A stretch of 64,000 nucleotides of DNA from a virus, in IMG/VR virus record IMGVR_UViG_3300045988_086557. One strand, 5' to 3'. The position numbers and the translations under genes are program-made. The notes beneath the pieces were generated by a model. The model saw only the letters and a program-made list of their open reading frames with translations, was not told the origin of the DNA and made no database searches. Shown one piece after another: positions 138 to 47,726 of this stretch (positions are counted from its first letter, which is position 1; every line of letters begins with the position of its first letter).

Positions 138-845
<708 letters not shown>

Positions 846-1530: not shown

Positions 1531-1559
1531 TACTACCTCCTAAATTTAATTAATATTAC

Positions 1560-2160
1560 CTCCAGTAGAAGTAATTGTAGCGGGACCAATAATTTTATAT
1601 GCTATAACTTGATAATTATTATTTATTAATATAGCTCCCAAACTTTCATATGCAGACTGAGGAGTAATTTTAAGTCCTGAAGAAGAACCGGCATTTATAG
1701 TTATAATACTATTTTTTATCACTTTATAATTATTTTTCTACACTACCCATACTGACATTGGCGCATTTTCATATTCTATTATTACAGTACATCCACTTAT
1801 ACCACTCAATGATTCAAATATAATATCCACCGTTTCTATAGGGGTTTCTGTTGTAATCTATCCTATCTTATCTGCCATAGTTGAAAAACTATCGGTCGCC
1901 GCAGTTTCTACTCCTTTGTCAGTGACTGCGGTCGCTATTAGGGTTTTGCCCTCACTGACATCGGTAAAAAGCTCATCAATAGCTGATTGAACATTAGTGG
2001 CTTTCATACTTGAAGTTTCATTATTATATTCTATTGATGATGCAGTAAGATTTTCATTATCTTCTTCATCAAATTCAATAGTATAAGGTCCTAACCCTAA
2101 TGTTTCTTCCATTTCTGCGCTACCGCCTCCTGGTACGGTAATAGCATTTTGGTTTTTAAC
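1560..2160 (-). CDS. tail-fibre-like protein (TAG-containing), includes ORF-track fragment 1858..2112
   Basis: Gly-rich N-terminus, 'NVQSAIDELFTDV' segment, Thr/Ser/Gly-rich C-terminus typical of fibre proteins; continuous only through TAG. Confidence 0.35.
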
Positions 2161-2271
2161 CTATCCAGTTAAAATACATTCCATAGATATTTTCTCCTTT
2201 CATCTAAAACCTTTAAAAAAGTACACTTTTTAACAGGAAAAATACTTCTTCTGTCTAGATAACAAAAAATT

Positions 2272-2298
2272 GGGAAAAGGGTAAGAAACCCTTTTCCC
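2272..2298. terminator. bidirectional stem-loop 'GGGAAAAGGGT aagaa ACCCTTTTCCC' between convergent/divergent blocks
   Basis: 11-bp perfect stem in AT-rich intergenic DNA between minus-strand fibre genes and plus-strand DGR target. Confidence 0.4.
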
Positions 2299-2509
2299 AA
2301 AAGTGAGTATCTTACTCTTTTCAAATATATATGAAAGAAAGAGTAGATAAATTATATATAGTTGACCAAGTTCAGTAAAGTGTACTTTTTCTCGGAAATT
2401 GTTAATGACTTTCTAAAAGACTGGAGCGAAGATCGCTTCCATCCTCGACCTTCTATCTAGTAATTTAGATTTGTTTATAGCAATAGCTAGATAGAAGGAG
2501 GTAAACAAT

Positions 2510-4264
2510 TTGCCTAAATGTATTTTAGCTGAGTAGGGTGGAAAAGGTGGAGGCTCTCTTTCTCTTGTAAAAATTGAAGTAACCACTCCCCCTAATAAAA
2601 CGAGCTATCTTGCTGGTGACACATTTAATCCTGCTGGAATGGTAGTTACCGCATCTTACGGCAGGGATGGTGTTATTGTAACAGCAGAAGTAACTGGATA
2701 TCAAGTTACTCCAAGTCCTTTAACAGACGGAGTTACTGAAGTAACTATTACTTATTCAGAACTCGGTGAAACTTGTCAAACTGCATAGAAGGTAACTGTT
2801 ATTCATAAACTTCTTAGTATTTAGGTTACTACTAACCCAACTAAGATGACCTATGAATATGGCGACACCCTTCAAACAACAGGAATGGTAGTTACAGCGA
2901 GTTACTCTGATAGTAAAAGCGCGGCTGTCACAGGTTATACGTGCTCACCAACATCCTTAACTACAGTTGGCAGCTAGCAAATTACTGTTTCTTATATAGA
3001 GAATGAAGTAACTCAATCTGCGAAATTTACGGTAACTGTTGAGCGTAAATCTGTCGCTAAACCAACCTGGAAAAGTAATCTTACCTATACAGGTAATAGT
3101 CAATCAGTAAGTGGAACTTCTTATTGGAATAATTTCAATACCACTTATATGACGATTGGTGGAACTACTTCCGCTACTAACGCAGGAACTTATACAGCTA
3201 CATTTACTCTAAAGAGCAACTATAGATGGGCTGATAAGACAACCGATAATCTTGATGTAAACTGGGTTATTAATAAAGCCGCGGGTAGTTTAACCGTAAA
3301 TCCAACTTCTGTTGCTCTTGATGGAGATAATTATAGTGCTGGCGTTAAAGTTACTATTACTCGCGCGGGAGATGGAGCTATTAGCTATACTCCAACTAGT
3401 GTTACTGGTCTTACCCTCTCTTTAAGTGGTAATATTCTTACTATTAAAGGTGATGGCAGTACAGCTATTTCTTCTACCACGATTACTATTAAAGTTGCGG
3501 CCGGAACTAACCATACTGCTCCAGGTAACAAGACTGTTACAGTAACAGCAAGCTATTGGGAGTGGGGTTCTGAAACTGCTACTGGTGATGCTAAGTGGTG
3601 GGCTGGATTAAAGACCTGGGCAGCTAAGGCTTCTTCCAGTGAAAGAAAGAAATGTGTAGGTAAAAAGAAACTTGTAAGTCTTTCTAGTGCGGTACTTGGT
3701 GCCAACGCTGCTACAATGATTTGTATTGGTGCTGATTAGGATGGAACTGGAACATTAACTTTCCAGACTGCGGGAACTTTACCTAACAGTACATCATTTG
3801 GTAGTAACGCGTTATGGAATGGTTCAACCGCTCAATCCTTGTGCAATGATTTTGGTAATAGATGTAGCGCAACCGCTTCTATTAAATCTGTTACTAAGAA
3901 GACAAGTTCTGCTAGTAATGGTAATTAGAATAATACTGCGGATGTTCAAACAACTGCAAAATGTTGGCTACCTTCTGAATGTGAGATGGGATTTACTAGC
4001 TCTAGCGGCTATGCTAGTTCTTATTAGGAGTGGACTGTTGGAGGAAGTTAGACGGCCTATAGTTACTATACAAGCAACTCTACTAGAGTTAAATACCAGA
4101 TGAACGCCAATGGTTCGTTGACGAATTCAACGATGTGGTATTGGGAACGGTCCCGTTACTACAGCAACTCGAGCGACGTTTGCTATGTCATCAACGATGG
4201 ATCTGCGAGCTACGACTTCTACCGCCACAGCTGCGGGCTCGCGCCGGCTTTCGTCATTGGATAA
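2510..4264 (+). CDS. DGR target protein (about 584 aa): tandem bacterial Ig-like repeats and a C-terminal C-type-lectin-like variable region; 7 in-frame TAG
   Basis: TTG start 9 nt after AGGAGG. Repeated 'KVTV...VTT.P.KT.Y..GDT....G.VVTASYSD' Ig-like units. 3' end contains the VR (4148..4247) ending in a GC-rich IMH. In frame with track ORF 3149..3739. Confidence 0.8.
4148..4247 (+). repeat. DGR variable repeat (VR), 100 bp, at 3' end of target gene
   Basis: 83/100 identical to TR at 4871..4970; all 17 mismatches fall at positions that are adenine in TR. Ends with shared GC-rich 'GGGCTCGCGCCGG' (IMH-like). Confidence 0.9.
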
Positions 4265-4345
4265 TACAGCAAAATAACAATTCGGGACAGTTAAGGTTAA
4301 ATTGTCCAATAAAAAAATTATATATTCAAGTGAGGGAAATTTTAA

Positions 4346-4840
4346 ATGTCTGTAAAAGTAAAGGATAGACACCTATCAAAACAAGACTGTCTTTATAAAG
4401 CCCGTGAATTGGTTGGCTACATTTTAGTCTTAACTCGTCCTAGAGAATTTGATAAGGATGGAAAACAAATCTGCAAACCTGGACTGCTTGGAGAGGGTCA
4501 ACCTCTTCAAGCGTTCGGGTACGATATAATTAAATGCGGAAAGGGTATACACGCTTGCTGTTATGAGGCGTGTAGGATAAACTTAAAAGATAAAGAAACC
4601 CTTACAAAAAGAAATGAATATCACAATAGAGCGATTGAATATTGTGATAGTATATTTCGACAAATCGACCTATGTATTTATTAGTATGCTCAGAACAGCA
4701 AAAAGAAAAGAAGATCTTTTGAACATCTAGCTAGATTGACTAAGAAAGTAAAAGAATCAATCCAAGATAGAAAAAATAGAGATAAACTTATAGTCGAGCA
4801 TAGATATTCGGCTCCTAAAACCCATAGGAGAGGTCGATAA
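4346..4840 (+). CDS. DGR accessory protein candidate (Avd-like by position), about 164 aa with 1 in-frame TAG
   Basis: small basic helical protein encoded between VR and TR immediately upstream of TR-RT (canonical avd position); no strong sequence match recognised. Confidence 0.4.
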
Positions 4841-4870
4841 TATTTTTCTGCGGTTAAATTCTGTATCTTT

Positions 4871-4970
4871 CGGTCCCGTAACTACAACAACTCGAACAAC
4901 GTTTGCAATGTCAACAACGATGGATCTGCGAACAACAACAACTACAACAACAGCAACGGGCTCGCGCCGG
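4871..4970 (+). repeat. DGR template repeat (TR), 100 bp, AAC-codon rich, non-coding
   Basis: cognate of VR; adenine-specific mismatch pattern; followed by structured spacer with hairpins 'GCTGCGGAGCAGC' and 'GTAGCTAccactaTAGCTAC' before the RT gene. Confidence 0.9.
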
Positions 4971-5279
4971 ATTAGATGGAGCTATCATGTTGCGAGTTAA
5001 GCTGCGGAGCAGCGCAAACGAGCAACGCCTAAATAGTACCCCGGAGTATATTATTATCCATCTAATTAAGGTTTACTCTGGATTGCACTCACTATGTGGG
5101 GAAGAGATTGAGAGACCATTAAAGAGCTTTGCTCTACAACTATCGAATAATATACTATAGGTAGATCTGCCTTTTCATCTAAGGAGAACTTAACCATTTC
5201 ACTGAAAAAGTGGATAAAGTAAGACTGTAGACGTGGAGCTCGAGTAGCTACCACTATAGCTACATGATAAGGAGAAAGT

Positions 5280-6497
5280 ATGTCTGAAATAAATCAAGAT
5301 ACTACTTTCGAGCGTTTTTGTAGTTTTGACACTATGTATGATGCGTCTTATAAGGTATGCCGAAACGTTCGATGGAAAGATAGTACAATTAATTTTGAAG
5401 AGAATAGGATAGAAACAATTTTAAAAACAGAAGCTGATCTGCGAGCGTGTGAATACGAATAGCTTGTGTTTAGTTGTTTTTCGATAATCGAACGAGGCAA
5501 ACCAAGAGATATAAGAGCGTGTCATATCAACGACAGACTGGTACAAAATGCGTTATGTGAACAAGTTTTATTACCAGAATTAACTCCTAGATTTATCTAC
5601 GATAATTGTGCTACTTTAAGAGGAAAAGGAATAGACTTTGCTTTAAAAAGAGTAAAGAAACATCTTCAACAAGCTCATAGAGAATATGGATTAGGAAAAG
5701 ATTTTTATGGGTTAAGAATTGATATTCAAAAATATTTTGATTCTATTGACCATAAATCTTTAAAGAAAGCGGCTAAACGTTTGATAAAAGATAAAAGAAT
5801 TTATCAACTATGCTGTTATTTAATAGATACATTTTCTTTTAAGCTAACAAAAGATTCCTCTCCCATACCAGGAAAAGATTATTATATTAGTAAACGGCAC
5901 AAATACACGAGAATTAGTACCACTAATTTTAAGCCTGGCCGCAAATACTATGAATATGATAATAAAAGTCTTGGATTGGGAAGTCAAACATCACAATTAT
6001 TCGCATTGCTAGCATTGAACGAAATTGACCACTTCATCAAAGAAGAGTTACATATTAAGTATTATGGTCGTTATATGGATGATTTATATTTATTCCACAA
6101 TGACAGTCAATACTTAGCCGAATGTGAAAAGAGAATAGAAGTTCGCTTAAATAAGCAAGGATTAAAGATGAATAAGAAAAAGACTACTATTACTAGAATC
6201 TCTCCTATTCATGCGGACGGCAAACGTCACGCTCCATTAAAATACTTAAAGTGGAACTTTTATCTCACAGACACTAATCATATAATACAAATTCCTTTTA
6301 AAAAGAAAGTGGCTCATTAGCGCAGAAAGTTAAAGAAAATGCAAGCGCTATGGTTAGAGGGTAAAATTTCAACAGATGAAATTTAGAAATCCTATCAAGG
6401 TTGGAGGGCACATATTTCTAAAGGAACTTGTTTTTATATAATTCAAGATATGGACAATTATTTTCGTTCATTATTTAAAGGAGTTGAAATAAAGTAA
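5280..6497 (+). CDS. DGR reverse transcriptase (about 405 aa; 3 in-frame TAG)
   Basis: 'ERGKPRDIRACHINDRLVQNAL', 'RGKGIDFAL', DGR-specific 'LGSQTSQLFALLALNEIDHFIKEE' (replaces the QGxxxSP motif), 'YYGRYMDDLYLF' (YxDD), C-terminal 'SYQGWRAHISKG'. Track ORFs 5280..5462 and 5466..6320 share one frame. Confidence 0.9.
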
Positions 6498-7157
6498 TGT
6501 ATATTCTATTAAATAGAGAGAATGTAGTAGTTGATATTCTTTCAGAAGCACGTTACATTAAACTGCAATCCTCAAATGGTATTGTCGTTGCCTGCGAGGA
6601 AGAAGAGGGAACTGGGGTTATCGGCTCAAATGGAGATACACATTATACTCTAATTAAAGCCGATGTATTAAATCAATCTAATGCTGTAAAAGTATTAGAG
6701 ATAGAAACAATTCCATCAGATGTTACTCCTAATTATTCAATATATAATCAAGAAGATGGAACATTCACTTCTGATTTAGATTAGGCAAAGTATGACAAAC
6801 AAGAGGAAAACAAGAAACTATTCGCAGAGTATCTTGCTACCCACCCACTAACTTGGGTTGATGGAAAAGAATATGGAATTACGTAGGAGGACCAGTCTGA
6901 GATTAGCTTAAATCTCAATCAATATCAAGTCGCTCTCGCGGCTGAAGTAGAAAATCCTACGCTTGAGTGGCACGCTCGACACGAAGAATGTGTGCCATGG
7001 AGTTTAGAGCAATTATCCGCTCTAAGTTTAGCTATTTCAAATGTGGTATATCCCAAATATCATTTAATGCAAGAATATAAAACTTAGATATTCGAAGCTG
7101 ATTCAATAGATAAATTAAAAGCTATTGAATTAAACTATGAAGATACCGACAGTGAGT
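6497..7157 (+). CDS. hypothetical protein (about 220 aa, 3 in-frame TAG)
   Basis: ATG overlaps RT stop; continuous through TAG; no motif recognised. Confidence 0.4.
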
Positions 7158-7594
7158 AAAAATATAATTCTATTTGCAGTTGGAGGAACTCTATATTACG
7201 GTATAGAGTTCCTCTATAAAACTTTTATCAGCTTTGGAACTTGTCATTGGTCTATGTTCTTATTGGGCGGCTTATGCTTTTTATTAATAGGACTAATGAA
7301 TGAGAACGTTCTTTGGGAAGAATCTATTCTTACTCAAGGAGTAAAAGGCTCTTTAATCATAACTGCTTTAGAATTAATCTTTGGTCTAGTATTAAATGTA
7401 AAACTAGGCTTAGGTATTTGGGATTATTCTCACGTTCCATTGAATTTTATGGGGTAGATTTGTTTACCATTCTCTATCGCCTGGTTCTTTTTAAGCCTTT
7501 TGGCAATAGTATTAGACGACTACCTAAGATGGAAATGGTTTGGAGAAGAAAAACCGCATTATCATTTATATAGTAAACCTCCTTGCGAGAAATA
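7137..7594 (+). CDS. 4-TM membrane protein (DUF1113/PF06541-like; possible holin-like function), 1 in-frame TAG
   Basis: hydrophobic segments; 'GIWDYSHVPLNFMG.ICLPFSIAWFFLSL' resembles Firmicute PF06541 membrane proteins. Confidence 0.35.
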
Positions 7595-7642
7595 AAAAAA
7601 ATGGGGAGAACCTTAATTTCAAGGTTCTCCCCATTTTTTTTA
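7593..7642. terminator. bidirectional intrinsic terminator
   Basis: A-run, 12-bp stem 'GGGGAGAACCTT aatttc AAGGTTCTCCCC', T-run; sits between convergent plus and minus operons. Confidence 0.75.
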
Positions 7643-8422
7643 TTTTACATCAATGATAATAATAGCAATATCATTTGTTGGTTTTTCTTTTGTATAAAAG
7701 GTAATTCCAACCCCAACTGATGCATCAGCGTGATCAATTTTACTATACTCTTCAAGATTAGAAGTATAACTAATAATAGGTGGCACATTACCTGCTTTTC
7801 CGCAAGTTAAAGAAGTATTGGAATAAGTATATGTATACATATCTTCATTTAATACCCAACCTGATGCAGAAAGAGTTGCTGGATAAGCTGCCGTAGTACT
7901 TCCACTAATCTAGTTATCTGTTTCCAATTTGCTATACACATCTAAATTAGTTCTCGCCCCTGCTGCATTAATTGCCCCAGTTCCACCAACTGAAATTGGA
8001 AGCGTTCCAAATTGCGGAGCGCCAGCTGTAGCGGCAAATAAAGCGCCAGTTCCTTGCAATCCTGTTACACCATTCTCGCTATTTCCGATAACAACCTAAC
8101 CAGCCTCAATTTCAACCATCTTTACCGCATTAGTTCCATTACCAATTAATAAAGCATTTACAGTTAGACTATTATGTCCAGTTCCGCCCTGAGCTACAGT
8201 GGCAGTCATATTTTTAAGAAAAATATCATCAATATCAATCTCAGTAATATCATTCTTTAGAACTTGAGCAGCATAGGCATTTACCTGCAAACGCCCACCT
8301 TCTTCATTACTAATATCAATAAAGAGATTTCCTTTATCTTCTGTGAAATAAGCGTATCCTTCATGAAGAGGTACACTATTCAAATTATCTTCTGGTCCTC
8401 GAAAAATCTTAAATAAAGCCAT
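7640..8422 (-). CDS. tail fibre / receptor-binding-like protein (261 aa, 2 in-frame TAG), last gene of late operon
   Basis: AAAGGAGGG RBS; conserved N-terminus 'MALFKIFRG...EGYAYFTED.GNLFID', Gly-rich collagen-like middle 'GGTGHNS...GTGALFAATAGAPQFG'; track ORFs 8096..8422 and 7640..7840 share one frame. Confidence 0.5.
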
Positions 8423-20845: not shown

Positions 20846-20880
20846 GGATAATAGGGGAGGAAATCTCCCCTATTATCCCT
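20846..20880. other. perfect 15-bp stem-loop 'GGGATAATAGGGGAG gaaat CTCCCCTATTATCCC' at the TMP stop, preceding the next gene's RBS
   Basis: read directly; no T-tract; candidate RNA processing/stability or translational coupling element. Confidence 0.5.
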
Positions 20881-23800
20881 TTCTTCTATTTGCCCATTGA
20901 GTAGCATCATCAGCTAAACTACGAATAGCATCTTGAATTTCATCAGAAGATGTCGCATTTGGGAACTCAACTCGCTCAATATTTATATACGGTTCAACTG
21001 TGTTATCTGCTGGAGTAATCTAAGTATTAGATCCTAATCTTGATGCCATAAGATTAGAAATAGATAGTGCATTTCCATCAAGCGCTTTCTCTATAGAAGC
21101 TATAAAACTAGGTTCAAAAGCTCTTATAGCAGAAACCGCCGCGAGAATATTTTTCGTATCTTCTTGATTTAAAACTAACTCTTTTTCGTGTAAGAAAGCT
21201 AATTTAGCATTATCAAATTCTCCAGTATAACCCCCTGTATCAAATCCGCTTATTTGACTTTCTTTTAACCAGCCATATGCAGAATTATTAGACTATACAT
21301 GAATCGGATATGGTCTGCCTTTGGCTATATTAGTTATTTTAACTTTCTTGCCGGGCCCACGTCTACCTGCTGGATCTGTGCCATAAGAATCATGATAATA
21401 AGTTCCACCAGTATAAATGACTTCGTCTCCTACTTCTGGGATTCCATTGCCACTTCCAGTTCCTCCACTGGAAGATCCGCTATTACTATTGCTAGAGTTA
21501 TTATCAGAAGATTGATCTGAATTAGCGGGAGGTAAATCATCTTTATCTATTCCTCCAGCGCTTTCTATTGTATTTCCAGCTGCTCTAGCAGCCTCCTCAA
21601 GAGCCCTTATATATTCTCTAACTGATTCAGCCATATCTAAATATTCTTGACTTAAATCTTGAATAGTGCTTATCTATTCTAACATCTAAGTGACAGCTTC
21701 TGATCCCGCATCAGAACATAACTCTGTAGAAGTTGTAACATCATCAAGATAACCTTCTAAATCATCAAGACTTGTTCCAGTCTAATCTGCAACTCCAGAG
21801 ACAGTAGTTTGATAATCTTCCATCGCTCCGCTTGCTTCGTTCATGGCCTTAGATAGAAAATCTTCAAAATTTCCAGCATTAGAAGTCATATTAGCAAGAT
21901 CTTTTGCGAAAACATTATCAAATAAATCAATAAGTTTTGTATTACTTCCAACTATATCTTGAATCTATTCATTATCAGATAATAACAAATCAATAATACT
22001 AGAGCCAGAATTAGCTATAATATCCTAAATTTCTTGACTTGTAATTCCAGTTAGATCACTTACCTCGTCTCCCGCAACAATAGCCATATCAATTAAGGCT
22101 TTATTACCGGCTTCGGTCATATCCTAAATAGCGATCTGTTTTTCGTTCTCTAGATCCTTAACCTTCTGCGTATAATAAGAATAGATTTCTTGCGCGCGGG
22201 CAGATCTTTCCTCATCAGTCAAGGTCATATCAGAATAAATCTCTTTTATTTTATCCTGACATTCTTGCCAAGTAGAAATAATTTCTCCAGTAACGTCTTC
22301 AACCTATTGTTTAGCTATGTTATACCATTCATTCTCTGCATCAAGTAAATTCTATTCCGCATCTGCTATCTAACTCGCATCTGCGGTATATTGATAATTC
22401 CAGTTGCCTTGACTATCTCTTACTAATCTAAGTTGATTCTTTGCATTTTGAGCATCTTCAAGAGCCATCTGAGCCTAAAGAACATTATACTTAGCTTCAA
22501 GAATTTCTAGATCATATTCAGATAAAGTATTATTCTCTCTACGAATATCAATTTCTTCTTGTAACTATTTCAACTAATCTTTCATTTTAGAATTAGTGGC
22601 TTTATCAATATCCTATTGAAGTTTATTATACCAAGAAGATACTTCATATGCTTCATTTACTTTATCTAAATATCTATCTTCTTGCTCAATGTAATGATCG
22701 AACTTGTCTTGTAGCAAATCTAAGCCAACTCCGCCAGAAACCGCCTATCCAAATTCGTATACGGCTCTTTCAATAGCCTAAGTATACATCTCTTGTGCAG
22801 TTTCCATAGCGGCTTGCGCGGAACTTAACATCGCCTATTGAGCTTCATTATATTCTTCTAATAATGCATCTCGATTAGCTTTTAAACCATCATATGCTGG
22901 ATCTGTTTCATCACCATCTAATGCATCTAACGCACTCTAGGCTTCTAAAAGTTCCTATTTAATGCCGTCGTACCACTATTTATTTAACTGCGCATTTGCT
23001 ATTTGAGCTTTCATTGTTTCTTCGCTTACTTTTTGGAGCTATTCAAATCCTTCTTCGGTTTTATATGTAACCCCCTAAAGTGTATACAATTCTTTTATAA
23101 GTCCAAGAACTGATTCATTATGATCAAGTTGATCAGTAAATTCAGCGAATCTTTCAGATGCAGCGTCTAATGCATTTGGCAACATTTCTTCAAGACCCTC
23201 TACCCAATCAAGTAGAGCTTCTGCGGTAGAAATTATTTTACCCTATAAATCAGATATTTTACTTATAATTCCATCAATATCAGTCGCATCCGTTGCGTTA
23301 GCCAATTCTTCTTGATAACTTTTAAGTGTTTCTTCATAATCCTTGATTATTTTTATATTTTCGTTCACACTATTTTCATCAATATGAGCGACTTCAATAC
23401 CATGAGTTAATTCGTCACCAAATGATTCTGCGATCTTTTTAGTTAATTCACGAACAGCATCTTTAGCATCTTTTATTTCTATTACAACTTCAAGTTTATA
23501 TTCAATCTAGTTCAATCTATTATCTGCAATATTTCTTTCTAATTCTTCCTATTCATCCTTTACTTCTTGAATTTTGTCAAGAGTTTCTTCATATTGGGCG
23601 AGAGCATCCTAACGAGCTTGGAATAATTCATCAGCAGCTTCCTTTTGTAACTGCCAACTATCATATTCTGCCTATCTAGCTTCCTATTCATCTTTAGTAA
23701 GATTACTAAAGGTAACTAAAAAAGCATTATAATCTGCCAAGAAATTATTATTATAATCATCTATTATAGATTGAAGAACACTTTGATAATCTTCAATTTC

Positions 23801-26800
23801 TCCATTTTCATCAAAAATAAGAGAATTATTAAACAACCCTTGAAGATCTGCCTAGTCTTTTGTAAGATAAGTTTCAGCTTCATTAAGTAGTTTGTTATAA
23901 TTAGCTTGCTATTTCTCCAATTCTTGAAGTTCTCTCTAGTATGCTTGAAGTTTATTGGCTCCATAGGCTCTATCTATATTATTTCCAATATCATCTAATA
24001 AATCGTTCTAATTCTCAATTTCGCGAGTTATTTCATGGTATCTATCTTCAATATCCTTTAGAGTCTTTTCATCTTCTTCGTCATACTTAGTGCCTTCATT
24101 ATCTCCGCCACTTGAACTTCCCTTTACTCCTTCTATAGCTCCATCAATAGAATCTAATAATTTGCTCTAGGCTATTTTTGCTGCTGCTATAGCCTCATTA
24201 TACCCATCAATACTCCCCTAATAAATGGCCCTTAGCGCTTCTCCAACTGCCTAAGATTGCTTAGCTTCAAGTGCCTCACTAGCATCACCATAAATATTTA
24301 AATCGTCTGCGGTTACAGGTTCTACATCTAAATTTGCAGTTAAAGAATTTAAGAAATCATCAGCGTTACTCGTATCTATTGTTGTTGCAGCCGAACTATC
24401 AAAAGAAACAGCAGAAGTATCAAAATCTTGCTTAGTAACATTATCAGTTCCTATTTGAGATACTTGAATTCCAGTAGCATATGCCGCATCTCTAATTTTT
24501 TCAAGATTAGCAAGAACATTTTGAGTATTTAACTATACATTAGTACTCATGTTCTGCGCGCCCTAAGCAGAATACTCACTAACATTAGTCCATAAAGTCT
24601 ACTAATTTGTATCTTGTGCGGTTAAACTATTGACCTAATCATCTAACATTTCTCCATTAGCAAGATTCTAAGCATTTACATATCCCGCTAATAAAGTTCT
24701 CTTCTGCTCATCTGATAATTCGTTTATAGTTAATTCTCCAGAAGCTAGCTGATCAGCGATCTTAAGCGAAGCTTCAGCCTCTCCTCGTTTAGCCTCTAAA
24801 AGAGAAATAAGATTTTGAAGCATATTAGATTTGGTATCAGCATCAACAGCTAATTGCCCCTAAGAACTATTATAAAATGCTTGATACATCTCATCTGTTA
24901 AAGCAAATGTACCATCCCTTAATAATTCCGCGTTAGCTATAAAACCTGGATAGATAGATTCAATAGCCTTAGCTGCTTCTCTACTAAAACTCCAAACTTG
25001 TTCTCCAGCTTCATTGGTAGTCTAGCTTACTCCATCAGAAATAGCATCGAATACACTTACAATTCCATCAACGGAATTTTCAATCTAATCTAATTGATTC
25101 TAAAAATTTAATTCTGCATTTATTTGTAACTAAGCTGTGCTAGAATCTATATCATCCTATAAACTACTAATTAGCTACTCTGCTAAAGTTACAGTATCAA
25201 TTTTATCTTGAGCTTCTTTTGTCCCATACTCAAATGCACTAACTACGTTATCCGCAGTTTCGGTTTTAAAAGATTCCCAATCAAAATTTTCACCTAACAA
25301 ATCCCAATCAATCGTATAATTATCAAGATTAAATTCTTCTCCGCTATTTAAGCTACCTTGATAATCATTATACGCTTCTCGAACTTGTTCCCAAGCATAA
25401 ACAACTTTTTCTGCACGTTCTAATTCAGAATCGCTATATTGATTTAAAATATCCTATTGCTCAGTTATTCTCTTTTTTGCTTCACTAATCTAATCTATTA
25501 ATCCATTATTGACAGCCTAATAGGACTCATTTATAATCCTCTATAAATAACTCTATTGTTCAACCAAAGTCATAGCAAGGAACTAATTAAAATCAATAAT
25601 TCCTTTTTCTTGATTTCCCCAATCAACAGTTTTAGAAAGTGATTCTAATCCTTCTCGATCTAAATCTCCATCTCCAAGAGTTTCTAAGACAGATTGTGCA
25701 GTAGTTAAAGATTCTGTTGCGTTTTCAACTTCGGAAATAGCATCAGTATATTTTTTAGCACTGTCATAGGCATCCTAAAAAGTCTCCTATGTTAAAGCAC
25801 CCCAATTTAATAAATTTAATACAGAAGTATCATAATTTTCATCTGTAAAAATAGATTCAAGATTACTTTTTAATTCTTCATCATTGACTAATTCTTCAAC
25901 CTCTAAAATTGCGTCATAAATATCTTTAAAGCCACTAATATCAGGATTCAGAGAAGTAGATACTAAATCATTGATTATATCGTTTAATTCTTCGCCTTCA
26001 TATCCAGCAGAAGTGAGCGCCTCTGTAACTTCGTTAACCCAAATTTTATACTACGCTAAACTTGATACTTGATCATCGGTAATAGTCTAATTATTAAACT
26101 CTCCAAGCTATACCCGAATAGCATTTATACTCTCTTTAGTTTCTTTATATTGAGTGACAACCTCTTCCATTTTATCTCGCCACTCAACAGCAGCATTGTA
26201 AAGTCCAGATGCTCCTCTTTCCGAAACAGTCATGCTATTATTCATCAAATTAATAGCATTATTTAATTGATCATAAAAATTAATTAATTCTTCTGTATTA
26301 TTTGGGTCTATAGAAAAAGCTAAGTTTCTTCTTCCACCAATTACATTGTCATTCCAACTACTATATAAAGCGTCCACATTATTGAGAAGAATATTAGATG
26401 CAGTATCTTCTTCGGTGCCATTCCAAAAATCATTAAAACCAGTAAAAGACCCCTCATAATTTCCACCAAAATATACGTGGCCCACGCCCTCTCTCGCGGT
26501 TTCAAGAATGAGAGTTTCATTCGCACGTAACGCTTCTTCTTGGGACTACAAAGTTTCCTAAAGTTCTCTTCTTTGAGCTTCTTGAGCAGCTTTTAAAACA
26601 CTATTATAATCTTCATACTATCCACTTAGTCTAGCTAATGCACTGCCTTCTAAATCATACGCTTCAGCCAACTAACGAGTTAAATCATCTAACTCTTCTT
26701 TTCCATCCCCAGTTTCTTGATAAGTAGATAAGGCATTTTGAGTAGATTGAATTAACTCTCTATTCGCTTGTGCTTCTTCTTTTTTTGCATTTGCCGCATC

Positions 26801-29599
26801 AATAGAGGCCTAAGCAGCAGCCAAGGTTGCTTCATGCTATGCTTTTATAGCACTTGTTATTGCAGTAATCGCTATTATTGCTACCATAATTGCAGCAGTT
26901 AAGATGCCGGAAGCCATAACGGCTTTCTGCTTCGCCATAGCAAGCTATTCTGTCGCTAAAGCCTCTACTGATGTTGCCGCGGCGTCCGCTGCTGCTGCAA
27001 CAGCATGAGCAGTAGTTAACATATTTAAAGTTTTATAAACAGAAATAATAGAGGGTAGTAACATACCAAGAGAAGTAAACAAAGCTACAATTCTTTCAGT
27101 TGAAGTCATATCTTCATCAGAAAAAATTCTTCCAATGCTCTAAAAAGCATTCATAATCATAGTTAAACTAGAAAGAGAACTTCCAACCTAAACCAATATT
27201 GTAGCCCAATCTCTCGTTGGTATTAATGCTTTTGTAATTACACTAGGGAACTTCGCTAACAATTCCTAATATCGAGCCTCTTGTTCAGTTGTTCTTGCAG
27301 TAACAGACTCCAATTTTGTTAATTCATTAATATAAGAAGTAACTACTCTTGGATCGGCTCCCATAGTCTATAAAATAGTCCCAAGTTCACGAATTTGCAA
27401 TTTTGCATTTTGAGACTAATTTTTTAACCCCTCTAATTGCTAAGTCAGCCATTCAATCTAAGCATAATTATGTTCTTTTCCCGTAATACTAGATAATAAA
27501 TTACGAAGGCTGTCTCTAGTCGCAGTTCCAGCGCTTTCAAGTTTTTTAAATTCTTGATACACTGTATCAAGTTTTGTAGATTGCTAAATTAAACTAGTTA
27601 ACTAAGTAGTAACATCATTATAAATTTTATCAAGGTTACTATTAGCTCTTATATTTAACTAAATTTGATTACTTTTATTTCTACTATTAAATTTATTTAT
27701 TTCTGCTTTAACTTCTTCTTGCCAGCCATCTTTTATTCCTATATTAAAATAAATAGTATCTCTAAGATTTAATACATTTTCCCTAGACTAAATCTACTAC
27801 TAAGAATATGTCTTTAACTAATCTTGCAAAATACTTAATTTTAACTGTTCTGTCTAAATTAATCTACGACCATTAGCATCCATCGCGTCGTAGTTACTAT
27901 TTATTTGGCCCTATATATTAGCCTAGTCAACCATAATATTAAAAAGATTTTTTTCAGCCTAAGACATAGAGTTTGTTAAGCCTAATTGAGTTGCTATCTC
28001 AGCCGCTGATGCCTACAAATTTCTTGCTCTATTCTACTCTAATCCAGATAGAACTTTTATATTAGCCACCATAGAACGCATTGATTCAGCAATCTTATTT
28101 CCATAAATCCCATTAATCAACAAAGCGGTACTAGCTAAAATACCATTTAACCCTCCCATTGCATCAATGGCGTCTGCAATACCAGATAAAAATGGAGTTA
28201 AGACATTATCTGCATTTATATACAAATCTGGATTTATGACACTATCATAAATATCCTCAGCAGATGCTTTTACTCTATCTCTAGCAGCTTCCCAAGATTC
28301 AGCATAAATATCTGCCTGTTCCTAAAGAGATCCCTCTGCTCCATAAGCACTAGCTAAATTCTCCTAAAAGAAATCCCAATTATCCATAAGTGCAATAAGA
28401 CGAGTATATTGGCGAACTCCGGCTACGGTCTAAGCCAAAGCAATCTACTAGTCATTAGATAAGGTCTCCCATTTTGAACCCATTTCATCAAGTAAGGTAT
28501 CCATAGTTTTAATCTCACCATTAACATCAAAAATATCAATACCCACTTTTTCAAGAGCTTTAGAATATTTATTTAATGTAGTGCCATCATCGAGAGTTTC
28601 TCCAAGATTTAAGCCTTGGATACGAGCAAATAAAGTTCTAAATGCTGTACCTACTGTATTAGCAGACTCACGTGTCGTAGCAGTGACAGTAGCAAGAGCA
28701 GAAGCAGCATATTCGTAACTTAATCCAACTGTATCTGCTACAGAGGCAAATTGTTGGATACCTTCTGAAATTTCATCAGAGCTAGACGCTGTATCGGCGC
28801 CTAAACGCACCATTACATCAGCATAATATTCAAGACTCTTACTTCCATCATAGAAGTTGTTCCAAACTGCGGTCAGCTGATCCGAAGCGGTCTATGCACT
28901 AATTCCTGCGGCATTAGCCATTTTAATAGTAGTTTCAGTTCTATCTAAAACTTCCTATTCAGTAAGACCCTATTGATAATAAATCAAAGCAGCATCACTA
29001 TATTCAACAGTAGTTGTACTTAATGCTTTTGCTGCTTCATTTGCCTATTGAGCAAATTTAGCCATGTCTTCCGCAGAGTTTTCAGTAACTATACGAATAT
29101 TTGTTAATGATTCATTTAGATCTTGTGCATACCCATAAGCTGATTCTATGGTTCCCACAAAACTATTTAACGCGGTGGAGGTAATCTGCCATCTCATAGT
29201 ATTTTTCATAGTAATCCATAACTAATCGAATATTTTGCCAGTGCGCAATGCTGGAAGCTCCGCTTTTTGAATCGCTGTTGCTACATTTAAAAAAGCCTTT
29301 TGCCCCTCGGTACCAATCGAAATTAACGAGTTGGCATAATCTTTAAGAGTTCTTCCGCTAGATTTTAAACTATTTTCAAAAGCTACTAAATCTAACTTTC
29401 CAGTCCCTTGATTAAATGCCTAATGCATATAAGTAGATAACTCTAGCGCAGACTAAGAAGCTTGTCGCAATTCTGCTGTAACTTTAGAACCGGCACTGAT
29501 TTTATTTAAAGATTGAACTGCCTCGTTTACTGCTCTGTAAAGTTCAGCAGTATCAACATCAAACCCAATCTAATAATTTAATCTTCTATTATTAGCCAC
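20873..29599 (-). CDS. tail tape measure protein (about 2900 aa if uninterrupted), TAG-rich
   Basis: TP901-type TMP core 'TAFRTLFARIQGLNLGETLDDGTTLNKYSKALEKVGIDIFD', hydrophobic segment around 26.8-27.2 kb, heptad-rich repeats. Track ORFs 28448..28813, 28034..28225, 26108..26485 and 21293..21634 all lie in one frame and are separated only by TAG. GTG start after AGGAGG. Full continuity not verified codon by codon. Confidence 0.65.
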
Positions 29600-29704: not shown

Positions 29705-30244
29705 TTAATCTTTTCCAACCACATCTTTAATTACTGATAAAGTTTCAAGATTCTCACCATTTTTAATTTTTTCCATTATATCAGTAATATATGTATCTAA
29801 TCCAGAAGCATTTTTATTCATCATTTGGATAATGCCTGCGGCAGAGTTATTATATCTTGCTATATCGCTTAAAGTATCTCTAACTAAGTCTTCAATAAAA
29901 GACAATTCATCTACTGGAATAGCACTTCTAATTGCATCAATAACACCATTAGTCTCTAGTGTATCATAAGTTTTGGCAATATTTTCATGCACATCTTCTT
30001 GCTCAAAAACAATTCCACCATACCATCTGCAAATAGCAATAGCAAAATAAGTTTCTACTCTTACCGGACTAAAACACCCAGTCATCTCATCTATCGCTAA
30101 ATCTGCGACAAAAGTAATAAGATTTGTTTTATCTGCAATCGGAAGATAATTAACCACAGATAAAATCTTATCTTCTCCAATTTTTACTTCTGTATATTTA
30201 ATTTTAGGCTCCAAACCCAAATCTTTAAAAGTAATTTCACTCAT
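29705..30244 (-). CDS. tail assembly chaperone (179 aa, TAG-free)
   Basis: acidic small protein immediately upstream of TMP; position and size typical of gpG-like chaperone. Confidence 0.45.
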   Translation of the reverse strand: MSEITFKDLGLEPKIKYTEVKIGEDKILSVVNYLPIADKTNLITFVADLAIDEMTGCFSPVRVETYFAIAICRWYGGIVFEQEDVHENIAKTYDTLETNGVIDAIRSAIPVDELSFIEDLVRDTLSDIARYNNSAAGIIQMMNKNASGLDTYITDIMEKIKNGENLETLSVIKDVVGKD

Positions 30245-31811: not shown

Positions 31812-33203
31812 TTAAATGGTGTCATCGCTAACAGAGACTAACTTATTGCGCATTTTTGCGCCAGAATAAGTGCTTGTGCTTTCTGCAAAACTGAGCTTGT
31901 TATTAATAGTATAACTCTTCTCAAAGTCTCCGTTAATCTTAGTAATCTTAGCTGTAATAGGAGTTGTATTACTCTCCTTAGTAAGAATTACTAATAGGCC
32001 ATCTGCCAATTCTGCGCCATCTACGGTTTGAGTCTTTGTATTGCCCTCAATACGGTCATCAGTAGAGAAGTATTTCTCATATGCTGGATTAGTTGTTACT
32101 ACAGTATACTTGGTACTATCGCTCTCTACTGGAATTTGGAGGCTAATTTGTGCGGCTTCTGGAATTGTATCTCCATAAGCCTCAGTATCATAAGCCTTTC
32201 CTGTTACAGTACCAGTTACATCAAGTTCCGCCTCTGTGGCACTGTTAGAAACAAAATTTACAGTTACATCAGCAGCTTCACTCTCATAAGTACCAACATT
32301 CTCAGAGCATGGCTCACGAGATCCTTCGGTTTCCCCAGTTTCATCAGTAATTACCTGAATAGCGGCAAGAACTTTATGAGTTTGATCAAACTTAGTGTAG
32401 TCTGGGAAAGCGTCCATTGTGAATGTAAAGGTAGATGGATCACCGTTAGCAGCCATGCTGAATGTGAAGTTACTCTGAACCTTACAGTTAGGAATAATAA
32501 ATTCAGCAGGCATATCTACGCCATCGCTCTCACGGCGGAATAGAGTAGAAGCTTCAAGATAATAGTTTCCACCAAACTTATCAGCGGTAATCTCAATCAT
32601 CTGGGCGCCACCAGTGCGCTTTACATAATAGTCAACTAAAACGATAGTACCAGATGGGAGCACTCCCGCATGAGAATAGCAAGTTAAAGTTGATTTTCCG
32701 TCCTCTGTATAAGAAACAGAAACAGGAATGCATGGTTCAGCATTAACTTGACCATCATCTCCTAATACCATTACAAAAATGTCAGCAGAACGATGATACA
32801 TTTCATTTTCATGATCTGCAAATCCATTCCAGCAAGCTTTATCAGGAATCACGATAGTGTTAGCTGTTTCAACTTCTACCTGAGAAGTTTGATGAACGTA
32901 AATTGGAGCTTCTTTTGTTGCATCAAGCAGACCTGCACCAGAAAGAATAGAGAAGCTCTCTGGAGAAAGTAAAGCATCTTCCATTGTAAATGTTAGAGTA
33001 CGCTCACCTTCCCAAGCAATCAATCTAGTATATCCACGTCCGCCCTGTGCGTATACAGTTGTTGCAGCACCTTCAAGAGTAGAGGTTCTTAAAGTGTCAA
33101 AGTACAAAACTGGTTCATTTTTATAGAACTTACGATTACCTAAAGTCTGATAGCTTTTGGCACGAAGTACTACATCGCAAATCTCACGAATACCAAAACG
33201 CAT
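31812..33203 (-). CDS. major tail protein (tube/sheath-type) with C-terminal Ig-like extension, 463 aa, TAG-free
   Basis: longest uninterrupted ORF of the late region, located after the head-tail joining genes and before the chaperone/TMP. Confidence 0.55.
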   Translation of the reverse strand: MRFGIREICDVVLRAKSYQTLGNRKFYKNEPVLYFDTLRTSTLEGAATTVYAQGGRGYTRLIAWEGERTLTFTMEDALLSPESFSILSGAGLLDATKEAPIYVHQTSQVEVETANTIVIPDKACWNGFADHENEMYHRSADIFVMVLGDDGQVNAEPCIPVSVSYTEDGKSTLTCYSHAGVLPSGTIVLVDYYVKRTGGAQMIEITADKFGGNYYLEASTLFRRESDGVDMPAEFIIPNCKVQSNFTFSMAANGDPSTFTFTMDAFPDYTKFDQTHKVLAAIQVITDETGETEGSREPCSENVGTYESEAADVTVNFVSNSATEAELDVTGTVTGKAYDTEAYGDTIPEAAQISLQIPVESDSTKYTVVTTNPAYEKYFSTDDRIEGNTKTQTVDGAELADGLLVILTKESNTTPITAKITKINGDFEKSYTINNKLSFAESTSTYSGAKMRNKLVSVSDDTI

Positions 33204-36353: not shown

Positions 36354-36887
36354 TCAATCAGAAATAGCTACTCTGCGTTTTGGAGCATCCTCACTTGTAG
36401 TTGACACTCTTCTTACAGGTTTCTCTTCCTTAGGATTCTTTTTATCATCTGCTGTTAATTCTAATGCTTTAGTAACATTAAATCCTAATTGTTTTTCCAA
36501 AGCGTCTCTTTTAGACATATCATTTAAGGGAAGAGAAATAGCATGGGATTTAATCAGATCTTTAGTGCCTTCTGGAGCAAAATCAAGAGCATCCTTAAAT
36601 TCATCTAAAGAACACGTATTCATCCAAGAATCAATCTCTTCTTCTTTCATCCAATACTCTGGTTCAACCCTACCATTAATAAGATATTCAACAATCTCTC
36701 TATCATCCACAAGCAAGTAATTATAAATTAATTTGCGGCCTCCAGGTGTTTGTACTAGCTTTTCTAGTTCAGATACTTCAAGTTCCTTATGTTCTCCAGG
36801 GTAAAACATACGGCGCACGCCCAATTCAGGCAATCTATATACAACACGACCTGCGCTCTTATTATAAACAGTGCAACTATTTTTCAT
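36354..36887 (-). CDS. hypothetical head-associated protein (177 aa, TAG-free)
   Basis: intact ORF directly downstream of the major capsid gene. Confidence 0.35.
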   Translation of the reverse strand: MKNSCTVYNKSAGRVVYRLPELGVRRMFYPGEHKELEVSELEKLVQTPGGRKLIYNYLLVDDREIVEYLINGRVEPEYWMKEEEIDSWMNTCSLDEFKDALDFAPEGTKDLIKSHAISLPLNDMSKRDALEKQLGFNVTKALELTADDKKNPKEEKPVRRVSTTSEDAPKRRVAISD

Positions 36888-36951
36888 AATTTTTATCTCC
36901 TTTTTCTCAATAAATAAAAGGGGATAGGGATATTTCCCTATCCCCTGTCAA

Positions 36952-38004
36952 TTAACCATTATTTGGATTTGGGTTAGTATTATCAAGCTCGCCTTGAAGT
37001 TCAGTATCAACATAAGAGAAGATGTTATTCGCCATCATTACACCGACACCAACCTTACGGTAAACCTGAATATCACGAGACCAGTCGTCATTATCATTGC
37101 GTTCGCGCACGTGGGTAGTACCTTCAAAAGCAACTTTTACAGGACGGCTCTCAGCTCCACCAGGAATAATCCAAGCATAACCTGGATCGATCATCTTTTT
37201 GGAGTTAGTCTCATCCTCAAGAGTTTGAGGTAGAATTACCACTCTAGTTCCCTTGTAATTTGCAAGATAACCAGTTCCCCAATACTGATCTCTCATGTTG
37301 TCAGAAATCCAAGCATCATTATCTGGAATCATTTTTACTGCAAACTCACGAGTGCAATAAATAGTTGGCTGACCATAAGCAGTAGCAGTATTTACAAGAT
37401 AATCCATAGTTGGTTCGTCAAAACCAGCAACAGCACAACGGTTTGCCGCGGGAAGCTGATTGATAGAACCCATAAGAGCTTGAGCAATCTCTCTATAAAT
37501 AAGCTCTTGCATACCCTCTGTTACAATTTGAGTAAGTTCTGCAAAGTTTACTCTTCCATCAAGGAACTCCTCAAATCCGATACGAGCAGCTCCACCAATG
37601 GCGCTTGTTCCAACTTCGAAGCTCTCAGAACCAAGCTTAAAGGTCTCATACACACCAGCAAGCCCCACACGAGTAATGAATTGCTTAGCGCGAGTAAGTC
37701 CAGTTCTACGAGTAAATACAGGCTTGTCGCCTTGTGCGAAAGTTCTAATCTCAGCAAAATTGCCATAAGAATTGAGTAAACGATTAGGAACAACTTCGTC
37801 CATAGTCTGCTCAATTAAAGAGAATAGAATATTTTTATTTTCTCTATAAAGTTCATCTGTGCCAACAAATTCATTTAGCTCATTACGCAAAGTAGTATTT
37901 AAAGCGTCATAGCTAAAAGACTCTCCTTGATAGCTATAGGTACCAGAAGGATTTGCATTAGCGACAGTTTTCATTAAACTAAGTAAATTAGCTTTATCTA
38001 ACAT
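36952..38004 (-). CDS. major capsid protein (350 aa, TAG-free)
   Basis: size and position after the scaffold/decoration genes; HK97-like capsid features. Strong RBS; no in-frame TAG in 350 codons. Confidence 0.6.
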   Translation of the reverse strand: MLDKANLLSLMKTVANANPSGTYSYQGESFSYDALNTTLRNELNEFVGTDELYRENKNILFSLIEQTMDEVVPNRLLNSYGNFAEIRTFAQGDKPVFTRRTGLTRAKQFITRVGLAGVYETFKLGSESFEVGTSAIGGAARIGFEEFLDGRVNFAELTQIVTEGMQELIYREIAQALMGSINQLPAANRCAVAGFDEPTMDYLVNTATAYGQPTIYCTREFAVKMIPDNDAWISDNMRDQYWGTGYLANYKGTRVVILPQTLEDETNSKKMIDPGYAWIIPGGAESRPVKVAFEGTTHVRERNDNDDWSRDIQVYRKVGVGVMMANNIFSYVDTELQGELDNTNPNPNNG

Positions 38005-38023
38005 TCTTCTTCACTCCTTCCAA

Positions 38024-38713
38024 TTAACCTACACGCTGTACTTTTACACCAGGTTGAAGATCTGGCATAGTATACACTTTTACTACTGCAAAGATAGGAT
38101 CTAAATCTCCACCTTTAGCAGAAGTTTCAGTATCTTTAGTTAAATATCCATCAGTATCAATCTTTAGACGATCGCCTACTGCAAGTTCTCCGGCATTAGC
38201 CTTAATGGTATTAGTAGTCCAAATATCGCCAATACTAATCTTAATTACGCGAGGTACCATTTTAGTTCCTTCTGGCATCAATGCAGGATAAGTAAATGTC
38301 TCCATATTTTTCTTATATGCTACATCACTACCTTCGCGCACAGCTTCTCCGGTATAATCACTTATTGTAGCAAGTGTAGAAACTGTTTGTCCAATTGGAC
38401 TATATACACGAGCATTATAATTATCCTTAATCATAGCAAAATCAGCATCAGTTTCGCGATCTCTATAAATCTTTACTTCATTAAATACCATCATCCAGGC
38501 GCCAGAAATAGCTTCCGTACTAAAATCGCATACGCCTTTTGCATAATCATACTTTACAAATTGACCGTTCTCAAGAATCTCAATAGTGCTAGCTGCGGGA
38601 AGCTGAGCATATACTTGACCATTTCTTGGAGCGGAAAGATGGTTTGGCTCCACTTGACCATATCCATACTGGACAAAAGTGGCATTACCTAATCTTTTAG
38701 AACTCTTAGCCAT
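38024..38713 (-). CDS. capsid decoration-like / second capsid protein (229 aa, TAG-free)
   Basis: between scaffold and MCP as in SPP1-like head modules. Confidence 0.35.
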   Translation of the reverse strand: MAKSSKRLGNATFVQYGYGQVEPNHLSAPRNGQVYAQLPAASTIEILENGQFVKYDYAKGVCDFSTEAISGAWMMVFNEVKIYRDRETDADFAMIKDNYNARVYSPIGQTVSTLATISDYTGEAVREGSDVAYKKNMETFTYPALMPEGTKMVPRVIKISIGDIWTTNTIKANAGELAVGDRLKIDTDGYLTKDTETSAKGGDLDPIFAVVKVYTMPDLQPGVKVQRVG

Positions 38714-45984: not shown

Positions 45985-46052
45985 CATATAATAACAAAAA
46001 AAAACTAGATTGTCAAATCTTATTTGATTAATTTATTTAAAAATGCTATAAT
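45985..46052. promoter_or_regulatory. divergent consensus sigma-A promoters (leftward TTGACA-TGnTATTAT; rightward TTGATT-N17-TGcTATAAT)
   Basis: hexamers read directly in the 100-bp AT-rich gap between the oppositely oriented gene blocks. Confidence 0.5.
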
Positions 46053-47546: not shown

Positions 47547-47726
47547 AATGTGTCCTTGTATTGATTATTGTTATAATAGATTCGGTCGGTAGTACACACC
47601 AGACTGCGACAATACTTGCGATTATGCAATTAAAGTTAAAGAAAATAAAATTCTTAAAGAATATTTAAAGAGATTGGCGGCGGAAACAAATAGTTTACAC
47701 ACTTTATTTGAAGATTGGGATAATTA
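47539..47726 (+). CDS. small Cys-rich protein (62 aa) with one in-frame TAG
   Basis: 'MSKMCPCIDYCYNRFGR.YTPDCDNTCDY'. Confidence 0.35.

Follow-up and report, generated by a model that had tools for sequence, protein, structure and literature searches.

A diversity-generating retroelement adjoining an invertible DNA segment in a TAG-recoded phage related to phAss-1

Introduction

Among the described systems closest to the element considered here is the diversity-generating retroelement (DGR) of phage BPP-1 of Bordetella (mtd-avd-TR-brt), in which a target gene is followed by the accessory gene avd, a template repeat (TR) and the gene for a reverse transcriptase (RT), and in which mutagenesis is specific to adenines. 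The variable repeat (VR) of that system lies at the C-terminal end of a receptor-binding domain with a C-type-lectin fold, both repeats are closed on their 3' side by a GC-rich element, a structured spacer RNA separates TR from RT, the RT carries IGxxxSQ and YMDD motifs, and the accessory protein is a four-helix bundle. Counterparts of all these features are found or predicted at positions 2510-6497 of a 64,000-nt stretch of viral DNA (IMG/VR record IMGVR_UViG_3300045988_086557; the whole stretch is called the window below). This locus is interpreted here, with a probability of about 0.95, as a complete and currently active DGR in a phage of ~130-155 kb that is related to phAss-1 and reads TAG as glutamine.

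Two published groups of DGRs are closer in setting. Targets with a DUF6273 domain ('tentaclins') are known from gut Firmicutes phages, including the Toutatisvirus of Faecalibacterium (bioRxiv 10.1101/2024.10.15.618418). The locus in the window resembles the Toutatisvirus DGRs in a target that joins Ig-like repeats to a C-lec-like DUF6273 domain with the VR at the C-terminus, in a TR placed between avd and RT, and in its gut Clostridia-phage setting, and few phage RTs in GenBank are nearer to its RT than those of the Toutatisvirus group. Unlike them, it has a single VR, belongs to a large (about 140 kb) TAG-recoded lineage and has an invertible switch at the start of its operon; its RT is ~30% identical to that of Faecalibacterium phage FP_Toutatis, the best GenBank phage match overall being 35%. 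DGRs with amber-suppressed RT genes have also been described in Zeta crAss-like phages, most of them without avd (PMC12386605). Common to these and to the present locus are a recoded phage genome, a TAG-interrupted RT open reading frame (ORF) that standard-code annotation and DGR finders fragment, the GxxxSQ motif and a C-type-lectin tail-fibre target. The phages themselves belong to different orders, the terminase large subunit (TerL) encoded here being nearest to those of Enterococcus, Geobacillus and phAss-1 phages. A crAss-like origin, to which the only paper connecting DGRs with recoding would point, is rejected on this TerL similarity.

Small serine recombinases beside a segment with short inverted crossover sites are known from Mu (Gin/G), P1 (Cin/C) and Salmonella (Hin/fljBA), where inversion picks between alternative receptor-binding or surface proteins. 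A comparable arrangement adjoins the DGR of the window. A DGR with an amber-suppressed RT and a DUF6273 target combines phenomena that are already published, and the core finding is not new in kind. What appears to be found here for the first time is an invertible segment adjoining a DGR operon; it has not previously been described beside such an element, and no paper among those searched couples a DGR operon to phase variation, to an invertase or to a promoter that inverts.

Results and discussion

Template and variable repeats

A repeat search of the window yielded a direct repeat of 103 nt with an offset of 723, spanning 4148-4250 on the VR side and 4871-4973 on the TR side. The VR (4148..4247, + strand) comprises 34 codons, residues 547-580 of the target's 584, and ends 4 codons short of the end of the gene. 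The TR (4871..4970, + strand) is non-coding, has 35 A in 100 nt and, read in the frame of the target, contains 14 AAC codons and one AAT among its 34 codons. Both repeats are closed by the GC-rich element GGGCTCGCGCCGG (4235-4247 in the VR and 4958-4970 in the TR), which resembles an initiation of mutagenic homing (IMH) element, and homology stops 3 nt past it. An initial annotation of the window, made from its letters by a model, had placed both repeats at these coordinates and had noted the abundance of AAC codons and the common GC-rich end, all of which is borne out.

When the repeats are compared column by column over the 103 nt, 17 of 17 mismatches have A on the TR side, for which the probability is 7.5e-10 given 36 A per 103 nt. 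The same annotation had counted 17 differences between the two 100-bp repeats, every one at a TR adenine. The restriction to adenines holds on exact realignment, with no mismatch elsewhere, but the count does not: 16 mismatches fall within the 100 bp, each at a TR adenine and all in the order of base pairs previously listed, and the seventeenth (4248/4971, A/C) lies one base beyond GGGCTCGCGCCGG. This last position is C in all VRs of all relatives and is therefore a fixed boundary at which homology ends, not a site of mutagenesis. Substitution of TR adenines can produce no stop codon; up to 20 codons can be recoded, and the theoretical repertoire amounts to ~4.5e20 proteins. A search with the TR, each A degenerated to N, for the additional VRs that the annotation had thought worth seeking turned up none on either strand of the 64-kb window.

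Target, accessory and reverse transcriptase proteins

The target gene (2510..4264, + strand) encodes 584 aa from a TTG start that follows GAAGGAGG. Its product is laid out as a short N-terminal motif with a Gly linker, a series of Big_3 Ig-like repeats and a C-terminal DUF6273 domain, and it ends in ...CGLAPAFVIG*; the Ig-like repeats, the near-terminal VR and this C-terminus agree with the initial annotation. The DUF6273 domain has a C-type-lectin-type fold, as had been anticipated, and the VR forms its C-terminal ligand-binding surface. Structure models were built on near-identical database copies (P0001 and P0092). The combination of Ig-like repeats and DUF6273 stands in place of the Mtd architecture of BPP-1. 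From its context the target is plausibly tail-fibre-like, and it would serve as a receptor-binding protein.

The accessory gene (4346..4840, + strand) encodes a basic four-helix bundle of 164 aa that we regard as a divergent Avd. Searches of Pfam, PHROGs and NCBIfam and a profile search against the PDB returned no match for it, and its identity was recovered by fold comparison alone. Unlike the Avd of BPP-1, this protein is thus undetectable by sequence, and it bears a beta-hairpin insertion between helices 1 and 2 (residues ~30-50) with the nearly invariant motif KPGLLGEGQPLQAFG. Its family, of ~90 members, is an orphan at the sequence level. The cysteines C72, C100 and C110 are conserved in it; we know of no equivalents in Bordetella Avd.

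The RT (5280..6497, + strand, 405 aa) matches Pfam RVT_1 (1.3e-16) and the PHROG RT family (3.5e-84), and its exact translation contains the motifs reported by the initial annotation, namely LGLGSQTSQLF (of the [I/L/V]GxxxSQ type), the catalytic YMDD and SYQGW. Its closest solved structure is Bordetella bRT (8ub7_A), with the SQ and YMDD motifs aligned, and bRT ranks above group II intron RTs (1.6e-7) and retron RTs. The similarity to bRT is nonetheless low (E 5.2e-15, 58.8 bits), and the present RT differs from it by an insertion of ~50-60 residues (residues ~165-228; 5772-5963) that lies between the bRT-aligned blocks, just N-terminal to GxxxSQ. NCBIfam contains no DGR-RT model; its group II, Drt and retron RT models match weakly, all far under their curated cut-offs. 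The nearest GenBank phage RTs are 29-35% identical and include those of the known DGR carriers Roseburia phage Shimadzu and Faecalibacterium phage FP_Toutatis. All elements of a complete DGR in the order target-avd-TR-RT, as originally proposed, are therefore upheld.

Spacer RNA between TR and RT

The spacer between TR and RT is non-coding and strongly conserved among relatives, and a structured RNA is predicted for it at 4966..5272 (+ strand), with domain 1 at 4966-5072 and domain 2 at 5170-5272. The BPP-1 spacer is about 140 nt long, as against about 300 nt here. The consensus structure (RNAalifold on a MAFFT alignment of ten relatives) comprises 61 pairs in the two domains, 22 of them with compensatory double changes; shuffled alignments give 7.0 +/- 1.6 such pairs, 0 of 500 reaching 22, and 1-5 are left when the 3' partners are displaced by 1-3 columns. 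Helix 1 is a long-range helix in which 4966-4980, directly 3' of the TR, pairs with 5057-5072. By analogy with the Bordetella system, in which self-priming requires spacer sequence near the TR 3' end, this geometry would place downstream spacer sequence beside the 3' end of the TR. Rfam has no family for the spacer: neither the whole window at the gathering threshold nor a permissive scan of 2100-5400 gave anything meaningful.

The biochemical steps of mutagenic homing can be proposed from homology to the BPP-1 DGR. An RNA containing the 3' end of avd, the TR and the structured spacer would be transcribed, and a complex of RT and Avd would reverse-copy the TR with misincorporation at template adenines. 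The resulting cDNA would then replace the VR, with GGGCTCGCGCCGG marking the 3' boundary, so that an Ig-repeat adhesin or fibre would have up to 20 codons recoded on the face with which its C-terminal lectin-like domain binds ligand.

Variation among related contigs

Related contigs were sought in public collections with a TR pattern that had N in place of each A, so that the non-A positions are fixed in the matches. The TR adenines are kept at 35 of 35 positions in six of seven such contigs, with a single A-to-T change in the other. The VRs of the seven are all different, each with 12-23 changes from its TR, all at TR adenines, and 32 of the 35 TR adenines are changed at least once among them. 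The repeats were also compared in 12 loci that were retrieved through the Avd protein, independently of the TR pattern; these gave 233 mismatches at adenines and 0 at internal non-A positions.

In three contigs (L003, L006 and L007) the 200 nt upstream of the VR, taken as a control, show 1-2 differences from the window, and the 100 nt of the VR show 15-25, all of the latter at TR adenines. In the clearest case, two contigs from sibling samples, L089 and L090, differ over 8,495 nt by 2 scattered single-nucleotide polymorphisms (SNPs), by one inversion and by 25 positions in the VR; their TRs are identical and all VR differences lie at TR adenines. Because near-identical genomes share the TR and differ in the VR at 15-26 sites, all of them TR adenines, the DGR is taken to be active in nature. 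The population-level variability of the VR for which the initial annotation had suggested looking is thus present, and is adenine-specific, between assemblies from different samples.

The assemblies carry a further mark of variation. Among 28 Avd-retrieved contigs with an upstream terminus, 15 break off within 95-250 nt upstream of avd, at or inside the VR (L010, L020, L027, L029, L030, L073-L075, L079, L080, L082, L087, L092, L097 and L098, with ends at 99-244 nt), and contigs of 29-144 kb are among them. Breaks of this kind are what heterogeneity within a sample usually leaves in an assembly. The cassette as a whole is kept in about 60 loci, the lowest Avd identity among them being 52%; blastn against GenBank phages returned no relative of it.

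Genetic code and affiliation of the phage

The recoding of TAG is evident in the ORF statistics of the window. The longest stop-to-stop ORF measures 8742 nt when TAG is read through and 1395 nt under the standard code, total ORF length is more than doubled by read-through, and a minus-strand block of virion genes at ~7.6 to 46 kb is contiguous only when TAG is read. Since TAGs that are replaced at homologous positions in relatives have become CAG or CAA (7 of 7), and since the Avd column that holds a TAG is Q in most homologs, TAG is concluded on this comparative basis to encode glutamine. The initial description of a TAG-recoded phage is therefore sound. Its count of 3 in-frame TAGs in the RT is also correct, but its count of 7 in the target must be raised to 8; avd has 1, and BPP-1 differs in this respect as well. 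RT, Avd and target would be produced only under TAG suppression, i.e. late in infection. TAG recoding has already been reported as common (PMC9610469).

The density of TAG is very uneven. Neighbouring late genes have 5-100 TAGs and a 2908-aa ORF (20873-29599) has 101; in-frame TAGs are absent from 29705-30244, 31812-33203, 36354-38713 and ~47700-57000 (stretches that include virion ORFs of 463 and 350 aa). The virion genes without TAG, such as these two, look like abundant ones, and the plus-strand block at 47-57 kb is likewise TAG-free. In the most divergent relative, L036 (1000-7000), no in-frame TAG occurs in the recombinase, in the fibre gene on the left or in the DGR target, and the target of L031 (5129-6898) has none either; the cassette therefore spans both heavily recoded relatives and those with little or no recoding.

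The TerL shares ~50% identity with its counterparts in Enterococcus phages H1 and VRE9_4 and in Geobacillus virus E3, and 44% with the one in phAss-1, and the related contigs measure 130-155 kb. phAss-1 (Phassvirus) is a human-gut phage of ~135 kb that reads TAG as Gln in its virion genes and has a proposed Clostridia host, and the paper describing it mentions no DGR or reverse transcriptase (PMC10607447). The phage of the window resembles phAss-1 in its TerL, in its code and in a probable Clostridia host, and the relationship is only a distant one; judged by these sequences, it belongs to a wider phAss-1-related group of TAG-to-Gln gut phages. Two contigs that carry the invertible switch described below, L041 (CALCFD010000051.1, 147,780 bp) and L042 (CALWOP010000177.1, 148,971 bp), were binned in metagenome-assembled genomes of Eubacterium sp. 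and Oscillospiraceae. This binning gives a weak hint of a host among the Clostridia, which are probably the hosts of the phage.

The invertible segment and its surroundings

Absent from the initial annotation was an invertible segment of 175 bp (2216..2390) in the intergenic region between a minus-strand tail-fibre-like gene (1546-2184) and the DGR target. The segment is bounded by perfect 14-bp inverted repeats (IRs), AAAAAGTACACTTT, at 2216-2229 and 2377-2390, which are unique in the window. It aligns to relatives in the orientation opposite to that of its flanks. Each crossover site is palindromic around a central AC (TAAAAAAGT-AC-ACTTTTTAA), and, compared with its relatives, the window has its inner half-sites swapped, which is what crossover at the central dinucleotide should produce. 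In all 61 loci first examined (roughly 40 distinct contigs) the core faces the DGR target, and in the window it is flipped. A second flip was found in ENA assemblies between L090 and L089 (1829-2003); there the two segments are exact reverse complements, in a clade different from that of the window (Avd proteins of the two clades are 69% identical). Flipped copies thus number 2 against about 45 other contigs, and a search of IMG/VR with the flipped-junction pattern yielded no further flipped switch.

A small serine recombinase gene is encoded to the left of the segment (138..809, - strand, as the maximal ORF, with a likely start near 761-770 and 6 in-frame TAGs). Its product matches Pfam Resolvase (1.1e-30), has the catalytic YxRVSxxxQ motif in the form YARVSSRDQ, and finds its best PDB match in Sin/Tn552 Bin3 (2r0q, E 1.6e-35), the Gin invertase (4m6f) following at 2e-15. 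All relatives that cover the region retain it at 75-97% identity, at a distance of 0.15-2.7 kb to the left of the switch; the best homologs among GenBank phages are 47-56% identical and come from unannotated fecal contigs. The serine recombinase that the initial annotation had placed next to the cassette is thus confirmed, and its linkage to the segment makes it the candidate invertase. Because there are two independent flips, conserved sites and a conserved serine recombinase nearby, programmed and recurrent inversion of 2216-2390 is well supported. As in the Hin system, the flipped segment holds a promoter-like element rather than coding sequence. Unlike Mu and P1, which swap the coding 3' ends of fibre genes, the inversion here concerns a non-coding 175 bp between two complete divergent genes. 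The recombinase is closer to Sin and the resolvases than to Gin, and an entire DGR operon forms one of the alternatives, in which the arrangement differs from Mu, P1 and Hin alike.

Within the switch lies a promoter-like site of sigma-70/sigma-A type (2351..2379, - strand; TTTACT-17-TATAAT), which in the window points left, away from the DGR operon, and in nearly all relatives points at the DGR target. Its -10 element is conserved across clades. A terminator-like hairpin (2263..2300, - strand) with a 13-bp stem and a T run begins ~45 nt downstream of the promoter-like site. The relatives inspected, among them a clade of 77-80% identity, retain this hairpin, and the changes in it keep the pairing. 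The leader between the promoter-like site and the hairpin also holds a degenerate copy of the hairpin's 5' arm (2274-2289, + strand, and 2307-2322, - strand; GAAAAGAGTAAGATAC against GAAAAGGGTAAGAAAC), which could allow alternative pairing of an attenuator-like kind.

To the right of the switch, the target, avd, TR and RT are followed by two ORFs, one at 6497-7159 (+ strand) with a weak DUF4376 match and one at 7137-7595 (+ strand) for a PF06541 membrane protein, whose order is the same in relatives and which probably belong to the DGR operon. A strong bidirectional terminator with perfect 25-bp arms (7590..7645) separates them from convergent tail-fibre genes. Because the + strand has no other sigma-70-like promoter toward the target from 2100 to ~6500, up to the end of the RT, and no terminator was found on it between the switch and 7590-7645, the target, avd, TR, RT and the two ORFs look like one operon starting at the switch.

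To the left, the tail-fibre-like gene (1546..2184, - strand; phrog_26419, 9e-11) is transcribed away from the switch. Tail-module genes lie on both sides of the cassette, which the initial annotation had placed back-to-back with tail-fibre genes. The N-terminus of its product, MECILTGQ, resembles that of the DGR target. In other clades the left gene is different, though also tail-fibre-like (phrog_4492, 3.5e-11), and has the same N-terminal motif; in three clades a different tail-fibre-like protein is encoded there. The motif reads M[K/E][A/C]ILxGQ in the left genes and LPK[C/V]ILxEQGGKGGG in the target, or more generally [K/E/Q][C/A/V][I/V]L..Q/G, which a Gly-rich linker follows in the target. 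At the DNA level it yields an outer inverted repeat at 2153-2180 and 2517-2544 (28 nt, 79%), with equivalents in L015, L036 and L089. The shared motif could be a virion-docking peptide or a second recombination site.

Elsewhere in the window no similar cassette or leader motif was found, and the main late operon is not preceded by one; on this account the idea that the switch is a general late-promoter or antitermination module was rejected. The main late operon has a near-consensus sigma-A promoter. Where the virion block meets the plus-strand block (45988-46052), two near-consensus promoters of sigma-A type diverge, TTGACA-17-TGnTATTAT on the minus strand and TTGATT-17-TGnTATAAT on the plus strand.

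From this layout a model of the switch may be drawn, in which expression of the DGR operon would be phase-variable through the 175-bp cassette. The cassette would direct transcription either into an operon of the fixed, clade-variable tail fibre and the recombinase or, in the opposite orientation, into that of the Ig/lectin target, avd, the TR RNA and RT, a putative receptor-binding protein heading each of the two; all genes of both operons would additionally be gated by TAG suppression. The recombinase would lie in the operon that is transcribed only when the cassette is flipped, so that the switch would be self-resetting, which would explain the ~45:2 bias toward the DGR-facing orientation. 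The proposal that the recombinase flips a promoter-leader-terminator cassette and so turns the machinery of mutagenesis on or off together with the diversified adhesin is a tentative one, to which we give somewhat less than an even chance; the regulatory coupling of the cassette to the DGR is put forward with the same reserve.

Alternative explanations

Several observations weigh against the interpretation as an active DGR in a recoded phage. A tRNA scan of the 64-kb window found no tRNA, including no suppressor tRNA(CUA). A suppressor may lie in the rest of the ~140-kb genome, and recoded phages that have none are numerous (PMC9610469). The Avd assignment is by fold and position, and four-helix bundles are common. 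Downstream of the VR, where a DGR of the BPP-1 type would have a hairpin or cruciform for target recognition, none of significance was found (DNA fold of 4230-4345, z = 0.0), and a weak hairpin of 7-8 bp is only partly conserved. The variation of the VR is read from consensus assemblies of different samples, and the sole consensus promoter near the DGR operon faces away from it in this genome, so that the copy in the window may currently be transcriptionally quiet. The last two points would also suit a fossil DGR, whose TR/VR differences are historical and whose mutagenesis has ended. However, the VRs differ at 15-25 adenine positions between genomes whose flanks are 99-99.98% identical, all relatives have an intact RT, avd and TR, and assemblies break at the VR, which together make a fossil very improbable. 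More improbable still is that the RT belongs to a retron, a group II intron or a defence (DRT/Abi) system and that the repeats are coincidental. The weak sub-threshold NCBIfam matches to group II, Drt and retron models would speak for such an origin; these nevertheless fall far below the cut-offs, bRT is the top solved relative, the protein has the [I/L]GxxxSQ motif with an adenine-specific TR/VR pair directly upstream, and synteny with an Avd-fold gene and a lectin target is kept in about 60 loci.

Regarding the switch, the flipped segment might be a rare accidental inversion or an assembly artefact that is irrelevant to the DGR. There are 2 flipped copies among roughly 48 contigs, the flipped junction is missing from IMG/VR, and the promoter prediction is no better than chance, since it is a single consensus match (10/12) and chance predicts one in a region of this size. 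Yet the two flips are independent, are bounded exactly by conserved IRs and exchange the inner half-sites; the IRs and the serine recombinase are conserved across the clade even where other sequence has taken the place of the left flank and gene; and misassembly is unlikely at IRs of 14 bp, assembler k-mers normally being longer than this. An accident or artefact is accordingly improbable, if not to the degree of the two explanations above. A stronger competitor, though still an unlikely one, holds that the switch is real and acts as a flip-able terminator or attenuator (cwpV type) or as a small RNA, the DGR being driven by another, unrecognised promoter. The strong hairpin with its T run, which in both orientations separates the promoter-like site from either flanking gene, suits it, as do the degenerate copy of the hairpin arm in the leader and the main late operon's lack of a similar cassette. 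It is opposed by the absence of another sigma-70-like promoter toward the target between 2100 and ~6500, by the conservation of the -10 element across clades and by the use of near-consensus sigma-A-type promoters elsewhere in the phage. The model of a switched promoter has to meet the same difficulties from the other side: read-through or antitermination past the hairpin must be assumed for either operon, its promoter is that one chance-level match, and the main late operon is without such a cassette.

Implications

As a DGR the element is ordinary, yet it is unusually well documented from sequence alone. It provides a worked example of how DGRs of recoded phages are missed by standard-code annotation, the copies of the target in databases being fragments cut at TAG, and it delimits a family of about 90 Avd proteins that are orphans by sequence. 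It also adds a covariation-supported model of a DGR spacer RNA from outside Bordetella, and near-isogenic natural pairs such as L089 and L090, with 2 SNPs against 25 VR changes, show the speed at which the element works.

The invertible cassette is the part that is possibly more important. If it controls transcription, then DNA inversion, targeted hypermutation and stop-codon recoding would be layered on one host-recognition locus. The element would then be the first phase-variable DGR that could be found, and the phage would combine phase variation by DNA inversion with retro-mutagenesis.

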